Shown here: piece by piece, positions 1 to 7,225 of the stretch
How the letters are laid out: the number at the start of each line of letters is the position of its first letter
Numbering within the stretch: the first letter of the stretch is position 1
NCBI GenBank assembly: GCA_000004985.1
Contig: GG739152.1
DNA from: Naegleria gruberi
Lineage: Eukaryota
DNA: 7,225 nucleotides
Reading direction: 5' to 3' (one strand)
The notes under the pieces: generated by a model
What the model was told of the DNA's origin: nothing
The model's database searches: none
The model's input: the letters and a program-made list of their open reading frames with translations, nothing else
Made by a program: the position numbers and the translations under genes

Positions 1-475
1 TCTCTGACCATCCACACAGTTCATACTCCTCTCCCTTTCCTTTTGTAAAAACACCAAAAACCGAAGCTAACAAATAGGAAACAAAGTAAGGCGAAATCTC
101 ATACGAATCCCACAATGTTACTCTCTCACAATAAAATTCATCAGGTATTTGTGAGGTAATATTCTTCAATACAGCAGCCCTCCGATCAGGAGTTATATTC
201 AAATTTACAGTCATGATTGGACTGGTATTCCAACACTTGTTGAAATTCTTCGAGTAGGAAATTTGTTTGGTATATAATAGCGTCATGGGAATACTCTGAT
301 TGAATATTGGTGCAAATCCATTCACTCCATTATGTATCATTCCGAAACTCTTATCCATATAATTGTTATTATTTAATATATTAATAATAATTATCATCAC
401 AACAATGAGTATTATTAAAACAGAAAATGAAACTCTGGGAAATAGTATTTGTGTCCTTGATTGTCGTAGAATCAT
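1..475 (-). CDS. Gene A: 5'-complete, 3'-truncated ORF. 158 codons are visible and it runs off the left window edge. Predicted type-II membrane or secretory glycoprotein: short basic N-terminus, about 20 hydrophobic residues, then a region with four N-x-S/T sequons.
   Basis: Minus-strand ATG at 475..473 in an A-rich context (cacaaaaaaATGatt). An in-frame TAA lies just upstream at 505..503, and there is no stop from 472 down to position 1. I translated the reverse complement of 1-480 segment by segment. Translation: MILRQSRTQILFPRVSFSVLIILIVVMIIIINILNNNNYMDKSFGMIHNGVNGFAPIFNQSIPMTLLYTKQISYSKNFNKCWNTSPIMTVNLNITPDRRAAVLKNITSQIPDEFYCERVTLWDSYEISPYFVSYLLASVFGVFTKGKGEEYELCGWSE... Sequons: NQS, NTS, NIT, NIT. 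It is not in the supplied ORF track, apparently because the ORF has no in-window stop. Confidence 0.6.
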   Translation of the reverse strand, partial: MILRQSRTQILFPRVSFSVLIILIVVMIIIINILNNNNYMDKSFGMIHNGVNGFAPIFNQSIPMTLLYTKQISYSKNFNKCWNTSPIMTVNLNITPDRRAAVLKNITSQIPDEFYCERVTLWDSYEISPYFVSYLLASVFGVFTKGKGEEYELCGWSE

Positions 476-739
476 TTTTTTGTGGTGATTCTCGTTTCGA
501 GATTACAAAGTTACATTCTTGGTGTGAAAGATTTTTATGATTATTGTAAAGTTGTTAAATAAATCATCAAATTTAGTAATTGTAAACTCAAAAACCCACA
601 TGTATCGGCTTATACTTTCAACTAAAAGGAATTTTGAAATATCAAGTGCAGTCAACTGTTTCTATATCAACGCACTAATCGAATGCGCATAATAATTTGT
701 ACACCCTCATTAAGATGAAACCTTGGTGGTTCCAACTTG

Positions 740-747
740 TATAAATA
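740..747 (+). promoter_or_regulatory. TATA box (TATAAATA) for gene B. A CCAAT motif lies at 769-773.
   Basis: Exact TATAAATA at 740-747, 91-98 bp upstream of the ATG at 838. It sits in the 362-bp AT-rich divergent intergenic region between the gene A ATG (475, minus) and the gene B ATG (838, plus). Confidence 0.35.
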
Positions 748-837
748 CCACTTATCGGCCAATTTCAAAACTCTAAATCCCGACTATGCATTCCTTTAAA
801 TTCACACAAAAGCCGAAATAATAAATCTCATAAAAAA

Positions 838-878
838 ATGTCTCAACAAGTAATTGATCTCAACAAGCAACATTTCGA
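838..878 (+). CDS. Gene B: 5' end of a plus-strand CDS. 13 codons are visible before it runs into the N block. Product unknown.
   Basis: ATG at 838-840 in a strong A-rich context (cataaaaaaATGtct), with the TATA box about 95 bp upstream. It reads MSQQVIDLNKQHF and then enters the N run at 879. The ORF-track entries 838..6255 and 854..6235 share this start, but their length is an artefact of N translated as X. Confidence 0.45.
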
Positions 879-3800
879 NNNNNNNNNNNNNNNNNNNNNN
901 NNNNNNNNNNNNNNNNNNNNNNNNNNNNNNNNNNNNNNNNNNNNNNNNNNNNNNNNNNNNNNNNNNNNNNNNNNNNNNNNNNNNNNNNNNNNNNNNNNNN
1001 NNNNNNNNNNNNNNNNNNNNNNNNNNNNNNNNNNNNNNNNNNNNNNNNNNNNNNNNNNNNNNNNNNNNNNNNNNNNNNNNNNNNNNNNNNNNNNNNNNNN
1101 NNNNNNNNNNNNNNNNNNNNNNNNNNNNNNNNNNNNNNNNNNNNNNNNNNNNNNNNNNNNNNNNNNNNNNNNNNNNNNNNNNNNNNNNNNNNNNNNNNNN
1201 NNNNNNNNNNNNNNNNNNNNNNNNNNNNNNNNNNNNNNNNNNNNNNNNNNNNNNNNNNNNNNNNNNNNNNNNNNNNNNNNNNNNNNNNNNNNNNNNNNNN
1301 NNNNNNNNNNNNNNNNNNNNNNNNNNNNNNNNNNNNNNNNNNNNNNNNNNNNNNNNNNNNNNNNNNNNNNNNNNNNNNNNNNNNNNNNNNNNNNNNNNNN
1401 NNNNNNNNNNNNNNNNNNNNNNNNNNNNNNNNNNNNNNNNNNNNNNNNNNNNNNNNNNNNNNNNNNNNNNNNNNNNNNNNNNNNNNNNNNNNNNNNNNNN
1501 NNNNNNNNNNNNNNNNNNNNNNNNNNNNNNNNNNNNNNNNNNNNNNNNNNNNNNNNNNNNNNNNNNNNNNNNNNNNNNNNNNNNNNNNNNNNNNNNNNNN
1601 NNNNNNNNNNNNNNNNNNNNNNNNNNNNNNNNNNNNNNNNNNNNNNNNNNNNNNNNNNNNNNNNNNNNNNNNNNNNNNNNNNNNNNNNNNNNNNNNNNNN
1701 NNNNNNNNNNNNNNNNNNNNNNNNNNNNNNNNNNNNNNNNNNNNNNNNNNNNNNNNNNNNNNNNNNNNNNNNNNNNNNNNNNNNNNNNNNNNNNNNNNNN
1801 NNNNNNNNNNNNNNNNNNNNNNNNNNNNNNNNNNNNNNNNNNNNNNNNNNNNNNNNNNNNNNNNNNNNNNNNNNNNNNNNNNNNNNNNNNNNNNNNNNNN
1901 NNNNNNNNNNNNNNNNNNNNNNNNNNNNNNNNNNNNNNNNNNNNNNNNNNNNNNNNNNNNNNNNNNNNNNNNNNNNNNNNNNNNNNNNNNNNNNNNNNNN
2001 NNNNNNNNNNNNNNNNNNNNNNNNNNNNNNNNNNNNNNNNNNNNNNNNNNNNNNNNNNNNNNNNNNNNNNNNNNNNNNNNNNNNNNNNNNNNNNNNNNNN
2101 NNNNNNNNNNNNNNNNNNNNNNNNNNNNNNNNNNNNNNNNNNNNNNNNNNNNNNNNNNNNNNNNNNNNNNNNNNNNNNNNNNNNNNNNNNNNNNNNNNNN
2201 NNNNNNNNNNNNNNNNNNNNNNNNNNNNNNNNNNNNNNNNNNNNNNNNNNNNNNNNNNNNNNNNNNNNNNNNNNNNNNNNNNNNNNNNNNNNNNNNNNNN
2301 NNNNNNNNNNNNNNNNNNNNNNNNNNNNNNNNNNNNNNNNNNNNNNNNNNNNNNNNNNNNNNNNNNNNNNNNNNNNNNNNNNNNNNNNNNNNNNNNNNNN
2401 NNNNNNNNNNNNNNNNNNNNNNNNNNNNNNNNNNNNNNNNNNNNNNNNNNNNNNNNNNNNNNNNNNNNNNNNNNNNNNNNNNNNNNNNNNNNNNNNNNNN
2501 NNNNNNNNNNNNNNNNNNNNNNNNNNNNNNNNNNNNNNNNNNNNNNNNNNNNNNNNNNNNNNNNNNNNNNNNNNNNNNNNNNNNNNNNNNNNNNNNNNNN
2601 NNNNNNNNNNNNNNNNNNNNNNNNNNNNNNNNNNNNNNNNNNNNNNNNNNNNNNNNNNNNNNNNNNNNNNNNNNNNNNNNNNNNNNNNNNNNNNNNNNNN
2701 NNNNNNNNNNNNNNNNNNNNNNNNNNNNNNNNNNNNNNNNNNNNNNNNNNNNNNNNNNNNNNNNNNNNNNNNNNNNNNNNNNNNNNNNNNNNNNNNNNNN
2801 NNNNNNNNNNNNNNNNNNNNNNNNNNNNNNNNNNNNNNNNNNNNNNNNNNNNNNNNNNNNNNNNNNNNNNNNNNNNNNNNNNNNNNNNNNNNNNNNNNNN
2901 NNNNNNNNNNNNNNNNNNNNNNNNNNNNNNNNNNNNNNNNNNNNNNNNNNNNNNNNNNNNNNNNNNNNNNNNNNNNNNNNNNNNNNNNNNNNNNNNNNNN
3001 NNNNNNNNNNNNNNNNNNNNNNNNNNNNNNNNNNNNNNNNNNNNNNNNNNNNNNNNNNNNNNNNNNNNNNNNNNNNNNNNNNNNNNNNNNNNNNNNNNNN
3101 NNNNNNNNNNNNNNNNNNNNNNNNNNNNNNNNNNNNNNNNNNNNNNNNNNNNNNNNNNNNNNNNNNNNNNNNNNNNNNNNNNNNNNNNNNNNNNNNNNNN
3201 NNNNNNNNNNNNNNNNNNNNNNNNNNNNNNNNNNNNNNNNNNNNNNNNNNNNNNNNNNNNNNNNNNNNNNNNNNNNNNNNNNNNNNNNNNNNNNNNNNNN
3301 NNNNNNNNNNNNNNNNNNNNNNNNNNNNNNNNNNNNNNNNNNNNNNNNNNNNNNNNNNNNNNNNNNNNNNNNNNNNNNNNNNNNNNNNNNNNNNNNNNNN
3401 NNNNNNNNNNNNNNNNNNNNNNNNNNNNNNNNNNNNNNNNNNNNNNNNNNNNNNNNNNNNNNNNNNNNNNNNNNNNNNNNNNNNNNNNNNNNNNNNNNNN
3501 NNNNNNNNNNNNNNNNNNNNNNNNNNNNNNNNNNNNNNNNNNNNNNNNNNNNNNNNNNNNNNNNNNNNNNNNNNNNNNNNNNNNNNNNNNNNNNNNNNNN
3601 NNNNNNNNNNNNNNNNNNNNNNNNNNNNNNNNNNNNNNNNNNNNNNNNNNNNNNNNNNNNNNNNNNNNNNNNNNNNNNNNNNNNNNNNNNNNNNNNNNNN
3701 NNNNNNNNNNNNNNNNNNNNNNNNNNNNNNNNNNNNNNNNNNNNNNNNNNNNNNNNNNNNNNNNNNNNNNNNNNNNNNNNNNNNNNNNNNNNNNNNNNNN

Positions 3801-6220
3801 NNNNNNNNNNNNNNNNNNNNNNNNNNNNNNNNNNNNNNNNNNNNNNNNNNNNNNNNNNNNNNNNNNNNNNNNNNNNNNNNNNNNNNNNNNNNNNNNNNNN
3901 NNNNNNNNNNNNNNNNNNNNNNNNNNNNNNNNNNNNNNNNNNNNNNNNNNNNNNNNNNNNNNNNNNNNNNNNNNNNNNNNNNNNNNNNNNNNNNNNNNNN
4001 NNNNNNNNNNNNNNNNNNNNNNNNNNNNNNNNNNNNNNNNNNNNNNNNNNNNNNNNNNNNNNNNNNNNNNNNNNNNNNNNNNNNNNNNNNNNNNNNNNNN
4101 NNNNNNNNNNNNNNNNNNNNNNNNNNNNNNNNNNNNNNNNNNNNNNNNNNNNNNNNNNNNNNNNNNNNNNNNNNNNNNNNNNNNNNNNNNNNNNNNNNNN
4201 NNNNNNNNNNNNNNNNNNNNNNNNNNNNNNNNNNNNNNNNNNNNNNNNNNNNNNNNNNNNNNNNNNNNNNNNNNNNNNNNNNNNNNNNNNNNNNNNNNNN
4301 NNNNNNNNNNNNNNNNNNNNNNNNNNNNNNNNNNNNNNNNNNNNNNNNNNNNNNNNNNNNNNNNNNNNNNNNNNNNNNNNNNNNNNNNNNNNNNNNNNNN
4401 NNNNNNNNNNNNNNNNNNNNNNNNNNNNNNNNNNNNNNNNNNNNNNNNNNNNNNNNNNNNNNNNNNNNNNNNNNNNNNNNNNNNNNNNNNNNNNNNNNNN
4501 NNNNNNNNNNNNNNNNNNNNNNNNNNNNNNNNNNNNNNNNNNNNNNNNNNNNNNNNNNNNNNNNNNNNNNNNNNNNNNNNNNNNNNNNNNNNNNNNNNNN
4601 NNNNNNNNNNNNNNNNNNNNNNNNNNNNNNNNNNNNNNNNNNNNNNNNNNNNNNNNNNNNNNNNNNNNNNNNNNNNNNNNNNNNNNNNNNNNNNNNNNNN
4701 NNNNNNNNNNNNNNNNNNNNNNNNNNNNNNNNNNNNNNNNNNNNNNNNNNNNNNNNNNNNNNNNNNNNNNNNNNNNNNNNNNNNNNNNNNNNNNNNNNNN
4801 NNNNNNNNNNNNNNNNNNNNNNNNNNNNNNNNNNNNNNNNNNNNNNNNNNNNNNNNNNNNNNNNNNNNNNNNNNNNNNNNNNNNNNNNNNNNNNNNNNNN
4901 NNNNNNNNNNNNNNNNNNNNNNNNNNNNNNNNNNNNNNNNNNNNNNNNNNNNNNNNNNNNNNNNNNNNNNNNNNNNNNNNNNNNNNNNNNNNNNNNNNNN
5001 NNNNNNNNNNNNNNNNNNNNNNNNNNNNNNNNNNNNNNNNNNNNNNNNNNNNNNNNNNNNNNNNNNNNNNNNNNNNNNNNNNNNNNNNNNNNNNNNNNNN
5101 NNNNNNNNNNNNNNNNNNNNNNNNNNNNNNNNNNNNNNNNNNNNNNNNNNNNNNNNNNNNNNNNNNNNNNNNNNNNNNNNNNNNNNNNNNNNNNNNNNNN
5201 NNNNNNNNNNNNNNNNNNNNNNNNNNNNNNNNNNNNNNNNNNNNNNNNNNNNNNNNNNNNNNNNNNNNNNNNNNNNNNNNNNNNNNNNNNNNNNNNNNNN
5301 NNNNNNNNNNNNNNNNNNNNNNNNNNNNNNNNNNNNNNNNNNNNNNNNNNNNNNNNNNNNNNNNNNNNNNNNNNNNNNNNNNNNNNNNNNNNNNNNNNNN
5401 NNNNNNNNNNNNNNNNNNNNNNNNNNNNNNNNNNNNNNNNNNNNNNNNNNNNNNNNNNNNNNNNNNNNNNNNNNNNNNNNNNNNNNNNNNNNNNNNNNNN
5501 NNNNNNNNNNNNNNNNNNNNNNNNNNNNNNNNNNNNNNNNNNNNNNNNNNNNNNNNNNNNNNNNNNNNNNNNNNNNNNNNNNNNNNNNNNNNNNNNNNNN
5601 NNNNNNNNNNNNNNNNNNNNNNNNNNNNNNNNNNNNNNNNNNNNNNNNNNNNNNNNNNNNNNNNNNNNNNNNNNNNNNNNNNNNNNNNNNNNNNNNNNNN
5701 NNNNNNNNNNNNNNNNNNNNNNNNNNNNNNNNNNNNNNNNNNNNNNNNNNNNNNNNNNNNNNNNNNNNNNNNNNNNNNNNNNNNNNNNNNNNNNNNNNNN
5801 NNNNNNNNNNNNNNNNNNNNNNNNNNNNNNNNNNNNNNNNNNNNNNNNNNNNNNNNNNNNNNNNNNNNNNNNNNNNNNNNNNNNNNNNNNNNNNNNNNNN
5901 NNNNNNNNNNNNNNNNNNNNNNNNNNNNNNNNNNNNNNNNNNNNNNNNNNNNNNNNNNNNNNNNNNNNNNNNNNNNNNNNNNNNNNNNNNNNNNNNNNNN
6001 NNNNNNNNNNNNNNNNNNNNNNNNNNNNNNNNNNNNNNNNNNNNNNNNNNNNNNNNNNNNNNNNNNNNNNNNNNNNNNNNNNNNNNNNNNNNNNNNNNNN
6101 NNNNNNNNNNNNNNNNNNNNNNNNNNNNNNNNNNNNNNNNNNNNNNNNNNNNNNNNNNNNNNNNNNNNNNNNNNNNNNNNNNNNNNNNNNNNNNNNNNNN
6201 NNNNNNNNNNNNNNNNNNNN
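879..6220. other. Masked or unsequenced block of 5,342 consecutive N. Its content is unknown.
   Basis: I counted directly: the first n is at 879 and the last at 6220. Gene B enters it from the left and gene C exon 4 enters it from the right, so at least the 3' portions of two convergent genes lie inside. Confidence 0.99.
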
Positions 6221-6586
6221 ATCTGCACCATCTGATTCCATATCAAGCAAATTAATTGCGTCTGCTGAAGGTTGTGTTGCTCTTGTGTCAGGTTTTTTGA
6301 TCCAATCTTTAACAAGTGTTAAAAAAACAACTTCATCTTCTGCAACATAGCTCTGCAATGAAGAGAATTGACCATTGTTGGCTCTGACATGTTCTCTTGT
6401 TGGTGAAGAGGTAGAAGGTTGAATATCTGTTGCTTGAATTGAGGATGGAACCCCTTCTATATTAGAAACTTCTACATTGGAATTCTTCTTTCTTTTTGGC
6501 TTCTCTTTTTTCTTTAATTCTATTAGACTCTTTCTTTTAAAAGAACTCCACAGATTGCTGAATATCTTACTGACATAACAATAGCT
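6221..6586 (-). CDS. Gene C exon 4, visible part (122 codons, phase 0). It continues leftward into the N block. It encodes a stretch resembling a nuclear localisation signal (KRKSLIELKKKEKPKRKKN), an S/T/P/Q-rich low-complexity region and an acidic patch.
   Basis: The minus-strand frame is open from the acceptor TAG at 6589..6587 down to 6221. Translation: SYCYVSKIFSNLWSSFKRKSLIELKKKEKPKRKKNSNVEVSNIEGVPSSIQATDIQPSTSSPTREHVRANNGQFSSLQSYVAEDEVVFLTLVKDWIKKPDTRATQPSADAINLLDMESDGAD... The right-hand ends of ORF-track entries 802..6315 and 860..6358 overlap this real coding stretch. Confidence 0.7.
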
Positions 6587-6641
6587 CTAATTAATTGTTG
6601 GAAAATAATTAATAAATAATTTAAGGATAAACTTCACTTAC
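6587..6641 (-). other. Gene C intron 3 (55 nt, phase 0).
   Basis: On the minus strand it starts with GTAAGT (6641..6636) and ends with aattaaTTAG (AG at 6588..6587). A CCAAC branch-like motif lies 11 nt upstream of the acceptor. Removing it joins exon 3 (ending ...CAA AGT ATT) in frame to the long open frame of exon 4. The alternative ttcAG acceptor at 6559..6558 was tested and gives an immediate in-frame TAA. Confidence 0.55.
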
Positions 6642-6819
6642 AATACTTTGCACGTATTTATATGTATCCGTTGACAATCCATTAACATGTTTTCTGAACA
6701 ATGTTTCACCAAAAGTTAATTGCAGACAATCTTTACATGAACTCATGGCAGTATCATTTTGGGGAATCCCTTTTCGCTTACAGTAAATTCGAATACATTG
6801 CATAACTTCTCTTTTTAGT
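6642..6819 (-). CDS. Gene C exon 3 (178 nt). It encodes a Cys-rich segment with a C-x4-C-x14-C-x2-C arrangement.
   Basis: This is the inner part of ORF-track entry 6621..6848. That entry starts at a TTG (not an ATG), and its last 7 codons (VSEVYP*) are read from the GTAAGT intron. The first exon nucleotide (A at 6819) completes the codon GC|A carried over from exon 2. Exon reading: (A)LKREVMQCIRIYCKRKGIPQNDTAMSSCKDCLQLTFGETLFRKHVNGLSTDTYKYVQSI. Confidence 0.6.
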
Positions 6820-6861
6820 CTATATAAAATCAAATAAATAACTAACAATTTGCTTACTTAC
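6820..6861 (-). other. Gene C intron 2 (42 nt, phase 2). A second donor (GTAAGC) lies 4 nt downstream, giving a tandem donor GTAAGTAAGC.
   Basis: Minus strand: gtaagtaagcaaattgttagttatttatttgattttatatag. The donor GTAAGT is at 6861..6856 and the acceptor tatAG at 6821..6820. The length is a multiple of 3, and removal bypasses the in-frame TAA at 6860..6858. The result joins ...CAA CGA GC to A CTA AAA..., giving ...TQRALKREV.... Confidence 0.5.
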
Positions 6862-6931
6862 GCTCGTTGAGTATCCTTCCATCCCACTGCAGCCTTGGGA
6901 TAACAGTCAGCCAACTTTTCATATGTGGCTT
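6862..6931 (-). CDS. Gene C exon 2 (70 nt), read in the frame that gives (E)ATYEKLADCYPKAAVGWKDTQR(A).
   Basis: This frame is open from 6983 to the intron-2 donor and is the same frame as exon 3. The acceptor is gtttacCAG with AG at 6933..6932. The phase-1 start matches the phase-1 end of exon 1 (G|AA gives Glu). The alternative frame (KPHMKSWLTVIPRLQWDGRILNERK) is also open across this segment, so the frame choice rests on splice phase and a weak codon-usage preference. Confidence 0.45.
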
Positions 6932-7097
6932 CTGGTAAACATGTTATGGTTAATTTAGTCTTCTTCTTTGTTATTAGAATAATTTATGTTGAATAAATGG
7001 TGCTAAACTACTTACTTTTACTGATGGTGATGATGCTGAAATGATGTAAAATTGGCAGTTGATGGAAAAGTTACAAGGTTGATGTTGAATTACTTAC
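6932..7097 (-). other. Gene C intron 1 (166 nt, phase 1). It contains the candidate 20-nt cassette exon at 7035..7016.
   Basis: Donor GTAAGT at 7097..7092 immediately after ATGCCAG. The acceptor is ...aTTAACcATAACatgtttacCAG, which carries TTAAC and ATAAC branch-like motifs 18 and 12 nt upstream of the AG. Confidence 0.4.
7016..7035 (-). other. Candidate 20-nt cassette micro-exon (CATCATCACCATCAGTAAAA) inside gene C intron 1.
   Basis: On the minus strand it is flanked by a consensus acceptor cATTTCAG (AG at 7037..7036) and a perfect donor GTAAGT (7015..7010). Including it would split intron 1 into introns of 62 and 84 nt and shift the downstream frame by +2. See the findings entry for the frame consequences. 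Confidence 0.25.
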
Positions 7098-7104
7098 CTG
7101 GCAT
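7098..7104 (-). CDS. Gene C exon 1: a 7-nt micro first exon (ATG CCA G) carrying the start codon.
   Basis: The minus strand reads ...cacaataaATGCCAG|GTAAGTaattc. The ATG sits in an A-rich context and is followed after 4 nt by a perfect GTAAGT donor. Phase 1 matches the exon 2 frame, predicting an N-terminus MPEATYEKLADCYPKAAVGWKDTQRALKREVMQC.... There are four ACTTAC (minus-strand GTAAGT) sites in the 1,005 readable nt on this side against about 0.25 expected by chance. I cannot exclude a 5' exon further upstream. Confidence 0.3.
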
Positions 7105-7175
7105 TTATTGTGTTTTTTATTGTGTTTTTTTTGATTCGAATTTTCAGTCGAAAGCCAGTTTTTAGACGAAAAAAA
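7105..7175. promoter_or_regulatory. 71-bp head-to-head intergenic region between the start codons of gene C (minus) and gene D (plus). Presumed compact bidirectional promoter and leader region.
   Basis: The minus-strand ATG is at 7104..7102 and the plus-strand ATG at 7176-7178. The interval is T-rich on the plus strand and A-rich on the minus strand, and it contains the tandem 12-mer listed separately. Confidence 0.35.
7107..7132. repeat. Perfect tandem direct repeat ATTGTGTTTTTT x2. The second copy runs into a T8 tract.
   Basis: Read directly: 7107-7118 attgtgtttttt and 7119-7130 attgtgtttttt, followed by tt at 7131-7132. On the minus strand it reads AAAAAACACAAT x2, immediately upstream of the gene C ATG. 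Confidence 0.8.
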
Positions 7176-7225
7176 ATGTCTTTACAAAATAACAAGGAAC
7201 AAGGTATCTATTTGAAAGACGCTGG
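7176..7225 (+). CDS. Gene D: 5' end of a plus-strand CDS. 16 codons are visible before it runs off the right window edge. Product unknown.
   Basis: ATG at 7176-7178 after an A6 run (gacgaaaaaaATGtct). It reads MSLQNNKEQGIYLKDAG with no stop before the window ends. It shares the ATGTCT start with gene B. Support is only start context and an open frame over 50 nt. Confidence 0.35.
   Translation, partial: MSLQNNKEQGIYLKDA

Follow-up and report, generated by a model that had tools for sequence, protein, structure and literature searches.

A 20-nt segment near one end of a Naegleria gruberi scaffold raises the question of whether it is an optional exon that swaps the reading frame of its downstream neighbour, or an ordinary exon of its gene. 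The stretch of DNA that we analysed (the window, 7,225 bp) is a complete N. gruberi scaffold with a gap of 5,342 N (879..6220), and the legible bases are confined to 1..878 and 6221..7225. The preliminary description placed the segment inside a 166-nt first intron of a minus-strand gene, here gene C, as a cassette micro-exon whose inclusion shifts the frame by +2. The 70-nt exon that follows would then be read in a second open frame (KPHMKSWLTVIPRLQWDGRILNER), and a second donor four bases downstream of the first would restore the original one. All coordinates and motifs of that description were reproduced on the minus strand, as were its four translations: skipping of the segment gives MPEATYEK..., inclusion with the second donor gives MPASSPSVKKPHMKSWLTVIPRLQWDGRILNERK-LKREV..., and inclusion with the first donor ends in a stop directly after ...NEH. 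The second donor does yield a 38-nt intron, as had been claimed.

A database search with the protein built from these exons matched a single cluster, at 99% identity: that of N. gruberi NAEGRDRAFT_79192, which comprises four proteins:

P0001, NAEGRDRAFT_79192: 193 aa, encoded on a 530-kb scaffold; the model begins MQCIRIY, at the ATG equivalent to 6803..6801.
P0002, NAEGRDRAFT_76782 (EFC35563.1 / XP_002668307.1): 109 aa, encoded on the scaffold analysed here; the model runs through intron 4 to a stop.
P0003, NAEGRDRAFT_80659: 241 aa, encoded on a 362-kb scaffold; the model has an odd SI/YCYV junction.
P0004: a 47-aa fragment encoded on an ENA metagenome contig.

Joining of exons 7104..7098, 7035..7016, 6965..6862 and 6819 onward reproduces P0002 exactly (109 of 109 aa). 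The 20-nt exon is thus an annotated one: public N. gruberi gene models have listed it, as a normal in-frame exon 2, ever since the genome was released. The same exon 2 is present in the model of the copy NAEGRDRAFT_80659, and P0002 and P0003 share their N-terminus, both starting MPASSPSVKKKTKLTITCLPEATYEK.... The introns of the annotated model measure 62, 50, 42 and 55 nt and have phases 1, 0, 2 and 0. Its parts, together with the sites used by the other splicing paths considered below, are as follows:

7098..7104, minus strand: coding part of exon 1, ATGCCAG, 7 nt, directly followed by a GTAAGT donor; its ATG is the first one downstream of the divergent gene's start and has an A-rich context.
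7036..7097, minus strand: intron 1, 62 nt, GTAAGT...TTTCAG; past the donor hexamer, no other AG comes before the terminal one.
7016..7035, minus strand: exon 2 (the micro-exon), 20 nt, CATCATCACCATCAGTAAAA, encoding (A)SSPSVK in the single frame of the gene.
7037..7036 and 7015..7010, minus strand: splice sites of exon 2, the AG of its acceptor TCATTTCAG and its GTAAGT donor.
6966..7015, minus strand: intron 2, 50 nt, GTAAGT...AACAAAG; in the preliminary description, part of one 166-nt intron.
6960..6967, minus strand: three tandem in-frame acceptor AGs, AAAG/AAG/AAG; the first is the annotated acceptor.
6862..6965, minus strand: exon 3, 104 nt, made up of 34 nt (6965..6932, KKTKLTITCLP) and the 70-nt exon of the preliminary description (6931..6862).
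6932..6933, minus strand: AG of the acceptor chosen for that 70-nt exon, TTTACCAG; required alike by skipping of the micro-exon and by the frame-swapping path.
6852..6861, minus strand: tandem donor GTAAGTAAGC, a consensus GTAAGT (6861) whose +5/+6 GT opens a weaker GTAAGC (6857).
6820..6861, minus strand: intron 3, 42 nt, phase 2, acceptor ATATAG with its AG at 6821..6820, seven codons upstream of a conserved Cys.
6642..6819, minus strand: exon 4, 178 nt, with the conserved core from CIRIY onward and an ATG at 6803..6801.
6587..6641, minus strand: intron 4, 55 nt, phase 0, GTAAGT...TTAG.
6221..6586, minus strand: exon 5, continuing into the N gap.

The deposited models of NAEGRDRAFT_76782 and NAEGRDRAFT_80659 and the preliminary description have the exon, its acceptor and its donor in common; they differ in that the models treat the exon as constitutive and continue at acceptor 6966, whereas the description treated it as optional and continued at 6932. 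The acceptor AG at 6967..6966 (AATAACAAAG/AAGAAG) had been overlooked, 34 nt upstream of the chosen AG at 6933..6932. With it, the frame is never shifted, because 20 + 34 = 54 nt are inserted, and the +2 shift disappears. Skipping of the micro-exon with the 6966 acceptor gives MPEED followed by a stop; the exon is therefore obligatory in the annotated model and not a poison exon, as had been considered, and the stop after ...NEH arises solely when the 6932 acceptor is combined with the first donor. The part of the original proposal that stands is that the segment behaves as a genuine exon between TTTCAG and GTAAGT; its role as a frame-shifting cassette does not, since the annotated exon 2 stays in frame. 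The three AGs at 6967..6960 resemble NAGNAG tandem acceptors, being three in-frame candidates 3 nt apart at the annotated start of exon 3, a likeness that concerns the acceptor and not the donor. Their alternative use would leave KKK, KK or K in the protein without a frameshift.

The signals around the 20-nt segment are those expected of an exon. GTAAGT occurs four times in the legible sequence (3,766 strand-bases), always on the minus strand and within 460 nt (7097 to 6641), and all four occurrences are donors of this gene in the deposited models; base composition predicts 0.2 occurrences in that stretch (Poisson P ~6e-5). The interior of the formerly assumed 166-nt intron was also put through 20,000 dinucleotide shuffles. 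A GTAAGT was present in 4.0% of them, a GTAAGT with a YAG 3-57 nt upstream in 2.7%, and one with a pyrimidine-rich acceptor in 0.6%. The 54-nt stretch formed by the micro-exon and the adjoining 34 nt is open solely in the frame of the model, with a codon score of +8.8 bits. The segment has the build of a cassette micro-exon, at most 30 nt in length with competent 3' and 5' splice sites on both sides. From these features of the sequence, the 20-nt segment is very probably a genuine tiny exon.

Six of the nine CATCA pentamers of the window are packed into 63 nt (7022..7084, minus strand), covering the 62-nt intron 1 and the 20-nt exon, and ATTCAACAT(C/A)AA follows both the 7097 and the 7015 GTAAGT donors. 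The cluster could be a splicing enhancer or branch-related motif serving the tiny exon, or a local repeat; over the whole window the pentamer count (9, with 6.0 expected) does not deviate significantly.

We consider it probable that the annotated model describes the main mRNA and that the 20-nt segment is the constitutive exon 2 of a five-exon, lineage-restricted gene, NAEGRDRAFT_76782. Translation would start at ATG 7104, and after 7 nt a 62-nt intron would be spliced out through the first downstream AG (7037..7036). The 20-nt exon would be joined across a 50-nt intron to the 104-nt exon starting at 6965, and the consensus GTAAGT at 6861 would serve the 42-nt intron. The predicted product begins MPASSPSVKKKTKLTITCLPEATYEKLADCYPKAAVGWKDTQRA-LKREVMQCIRIY... 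and keeps one frame throughout. The GTAAGC four bases further on would be a trivial second GT, giving at most splicing noise with a premature stop, and the second open frame of the 70-nt segment would be a chance property. We infer that this mRNA predominates; what was observed are the sequence features, the exact match to P0002, the outcome of the chance controls and the intron layout conserved in the sister genus, described next.

An exhaustive HMMER search with P0003 recovered one true distant relative, a protein of Willaertia magna from the sister genus (P0005, KAL9649525.1), which is 39% identical to the N. gruberi protein from CIRIY onward. Its locus on JBEGDK010000091.1, in an assembly annotated by BRAKER2 with RNA-seq and protein hints (PMC11702301), reproduces the protein from exons of 7, 41, 17, 175 and 213 nt and introns of 54, 144, 44 and 42 nt. 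The introns have phases 1, 0, 2 and 0, the same in number and phase as those of the annotated N. gruberi model, and exon 1 (ATGTCTT/GTATGT) is 7 nt long and ends in phase 1. Three junctions coincide exactly between the two genera: junction 1, which follows 7 coding nt, junction 3 in phase 2 exactly seven codons before the conserved Cys, and junction 4 in phase 0 at I/[SR]Y.YC. The comparison supports the predicted four-intron layout over the three-intron main path of the preliminary description. The tiny internal exon of Willaertia (17 nt, at 2747..2763 of the locus sequence 2501..3237) lies among extremely AT-rich introns of 7-13% GC.

Several observations count against the annotated model. 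The remaining phase-0 intron, at junction 2, lies at a different codon in the two genera. The N-terminal peptides of the two genera share no significant similarity under any model: the Willaertia peptide aligned with that of each N. gruberi model no better than with shuffles (p 0.57-0.99), a comparison that does not discriminate between the models, and the segment is not alignable. The 6966 acceptor has an A-rich context; a similar A-rich acceptor, ATACAAG, is used by Willaertia intron 1. A rule of choosing the first AG downstream, considered as decisive for the 6966 acceptor, was dropped, as Willaertia intron 2 (144 nt) passes over internal AGs.

The deposited models themselves are a further point against it. 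The N. gruberi assembly contains three near-identical copies of the gene, of which the one on this scaffold is the third and slightly diverged, and their three models are mutually discordant, which suggests ab initio prediction. Two of the three are visibly defective, P0001 being truncated at the N-terminus and P0002 reading through an intron; in P0003, the SI/YCYV junction is disfavoured relative to SI/SYCYV by the Willaertia alignment. The protein databases searched contain no transcript-derived protein for gene C. At ~6335 (minus strand, GAAGATGAA/GTTGTT) the window is missing a CAA (Q) codon, giving AEDEVVFL where P0001, P0003 and an ENA contig have AEDEQVVFL; this makes the scaffold a variant, allelic or duplicated, and not a redundant assembly of one sequence. 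That contig (ERZ929261, k127_325338, 510 nt), from a sample labelled as a metagenome, is nearly identical to the 3' end of gene C in N. gruberi except for a 2-nt deletion and the CAA codon. It provides the stop codon and ~280 nt downstream, hidden beneath the N block in the window.

The alternative that survives best is skipping of the micro-exon, in most messages or as a genuine second form, with exon 1 joined to 6931 across a 166-nt intron to give MPEATYEK.... The gene would then have two in-frame proteins 18 residues apart, one from the micro-exon with the 6966 acceptor and one from skipping with the 6932 acceptor. The skipped message is stop-free and in frame with perfect donors only, and TTTACCAG is richer in pyrimidines and has branch-like TTAAC and ATAAC motifs upstream. 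Its N-terminal length (26 aa with the 7098/6931 junction) is nearer the 22 aa of Willaertia, a point that also weighs against the annotated model. Introns of N. gruberi average 203 bp (PMC8296547), not far from 166 nt, the passage of Willaertia intron 2 over internal AGs offers a parallel, and transcriptomes of N. gruberi in general do show exon skipping (PMC6142364). RNA-seq reads of the species exist (PRJEB23822). Skipping would, however, require the splicing machinery to ignore an intronic TTTCAG and perfect GTAAGT, a combination found by chance in 0.6-2.7% of cases, and it leaves three introns of phases 1, 2 and 0 against the four of phases 1, 0, 2 and 0 in Willaertia. Intron retention exceeds exon skipping in all but one of 65 species surveyed, N. 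gruberi being among those covered (PMC6142364), and the exact full-length protein is absent among 15 billion sequences. We regard skipping, whether predominant or as a co-isoform, as unlikely, yet as a serious alternative.

According to a second alternative, the gene has no upstream coding exons: translation would start at ATG 6803, as in NAEGRDRAFT_79192, and 6820-7175 would be promoter or 5' UTR in which the splice-like motifs are non-coding or unused. One of the three deposited models (P0001) does begin MQCIRIY, and robust similarity to Willaertia starts at CIRIY. Against this, 29 residues precede the conserved Cys in the Willaertia protein. The Willaertia gene also has an intron that matches intron 3 (6861..6820) exactly in position and phase, and, as no Met lies between that conserved phase-2 intron and the Cys, coding must extend upstream. 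The region contains three perfect GTAAGT on the strand of the gene, in an organism that averages 0.7 introns per gene (PMC8296547). The 70-nt segment is a GC island (49%, compared with 18-32% in the flanking introns) with good codon usage, and ATG 7104 would open a 4-codon upstream ORF in transcripts starting in the 71-nt intergenic gap. These observations make a start at 6803 improbable.

The preliminary description had called a segment open in two frames with compensating splice sites unusual; in our controls, both features were at chance level. In the trusted coding sequence of the window, 18% of 74-nt windows are free of stops in a given second sense frame and 30% in at least one such frame, and in synonymous resamplings of the peptide of the 70-nt exon the second frame remains open in 46%. 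The codon log-odds of the 70-nt exon are +3.2 bits in the main frame and -4.0 bits in the alternative one, or +7.8 and +0.2 bits when scored against base composition, with a small reference set of ~340 codons in both cases. As to dual coding, the second frame is open no more often than by chance and carries no coding signature. Between ATG 7104 and the conserved exon we further enumerated the GT/AG splicing paths that have no more than three introns, each 35 nt or longer. Of these, 16 keep the frame without a stop on perfect donors alone, and the number rises to 36 once donors matching at five of six positions are allowed; 11 of the 36 go through GTAAGC, among them the path of the preliminary description.

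The second donor, which had been credited with rescuing the frame, is a weaker site matching at five of six positions and lacking the +6 T that all eight donors annotated for the gene in Naegleria and Willaertia have. Its orthologue in Willaertia is the donor GTAAGTATTT, whose +4 site, GTATTT, agrees with the consensus at three of six positions; the tandem donor is therefore not conserved. A GT at +5/+6 is inherent in GTAAGT, and all four donors here have a purine after the second GT. Exact look-ups of the full-length isoforms with skipping, with frame swapping or with a start at the exon-2 ATG, each with and without the Q codon, gave no match among 15 billion proteins.

The frame-swapping scheme, in which the micro-exon is joined to 6931 and GTAAGC 6857 restores the frame to give an alternative N-terminus, or the first donor gives a poison isoform, is very improbable: the path exists, is free of stops and has a 38-nt intron above the 30-bp minimum used for Naegleria (PMC8296547), but it is one of 36 frame-preserving paths, must pass the three AGs at 6967-6960 and prefer a five-of-six donor without the invariant +6 T over the overlapping perfect one, leads through a frame of negative codon score whose openness is expected in 18-46% of controls, depends on a donor not conserved in Willaertia, yields an N-terminus carried by no protein in the databases searched, and belongs to a type of +4 donor shift that in human is mostly noise cleared by NMD (PMC8055015). 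If true, a fraction of the transcripts of this heterolobosean amoeba would have the 70-nt exon read in its second frame, putting two unrelated N-termini on one protein body, with the mismatched combinations as NMD substrates. The tandem donor and second frame look like chance: the apparent coupling arose because the acceptor at 6966 was overlooked, together with features expected by chance, and a frame-swapping mechanism appears unnecessary.

The main frame may also be favoured, as a hint, by the only other HMMER match, a Phytophthora infestans protein of 1979 aa with many near-identical repeats (PITG_03983, P0006; E = 4.8e-4). Its ungapped alignment to main-frame residues 20-57, spanning the junction at the first donor, scores 28.9 bits per repeat, compared with 16.5 for the alternative frame; the relation is remote, its significance is inflated by the near-identical repeats, and the comparison is biased by a main-frame query. 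The segment ...GRGLRDAKRALRSRLWECISVYT... of this protein resembles GWKDTQRALKREVMQCIRIYC of gene C, a likeness that could be coincidental or reflect a distantly shared motif.

Gene C can be set beside several known systems. Like the GYNNGY (+4) class of tandem donors, GTAAGTAAGC has two GT four bases apart, and splicing at the second would lengthen the exon by 4 nt and change the frame (PMC8055015). The layout of two GY 4 nt apart is present at 6861..6852 trivially, as any GTAAGT qualifies: the class arises from the donor consensus itself (PMC8055015), and seven of the eight donors annotated in Naegleria and Willaertia share the motif. The second site here is a putative one. In the human catalogue, use of such sites disrupts the frame and NMD-sensitive isoforms are expected (PMC8055015); the gene C site differs in that it is not conserved in Willaertia. 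Animal cassette micro-exons and poison exons share with exon 2 the very short length, the strong flanking signals and the premature stops produced by some site combinations (after MPEED or after ...NEH), but in gene C inclusion is needed for an open frame with the annotated acceptor, and the host is an intron-poor heterolobosean. Gene C also resembles the Willaertia orthologue, with its 7-nt first coding exon, its 17-nt internal exon and its four introns of phases 1, 0, 2 and 0; there, in contrast, the tiny exon ranks third and not second, and the orthologous intron has no credible second donor.

Elsewhere on the scaffold, a 12-nt perfect tandem duplication (two copies of AAACACAATAAA, minus strand, 7104..7127) ends at the gene C ATG. 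It falls inside the 71-nt gap that separates the divergent start codons at 7104 (minus strand) and 7176 (plus strand), which is probably a very compact bidirectional promoter. An ORF of at least 158 aa (1..478, minus strand) exits the start of the window; its start lies in an A-rich context, its N-terminus has a hydrophobic segment, and it is without relatives among 5.8 billion proteins, the N. gruberi annotation included. Pfam found no domains, and a search of 6221-7225 against Rfam (E <= 1) returned a single chance-level miRNA match. An unspliced ORF of 60 aa matched no database record, and a scan of JGI metagenomes with P0003 gave 600 pattern matches, none of them a true relative.

The significance of the locus is slight, in that the exon has long been in the public annotation, and an overlooked acceptor plus chance best accounts for the frame-swap coupling. 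It has modest value as a set of three near-identical copies of an orphan gene with discordant models. Naegleria and Willaertia also appear to share, by conservation, a 7-nt first coding exon and tiny internal exons in a lineage averaging less than one intron per gene, which makes the gene a convenient test case for the recognition of very short exons in Heterolobosea.
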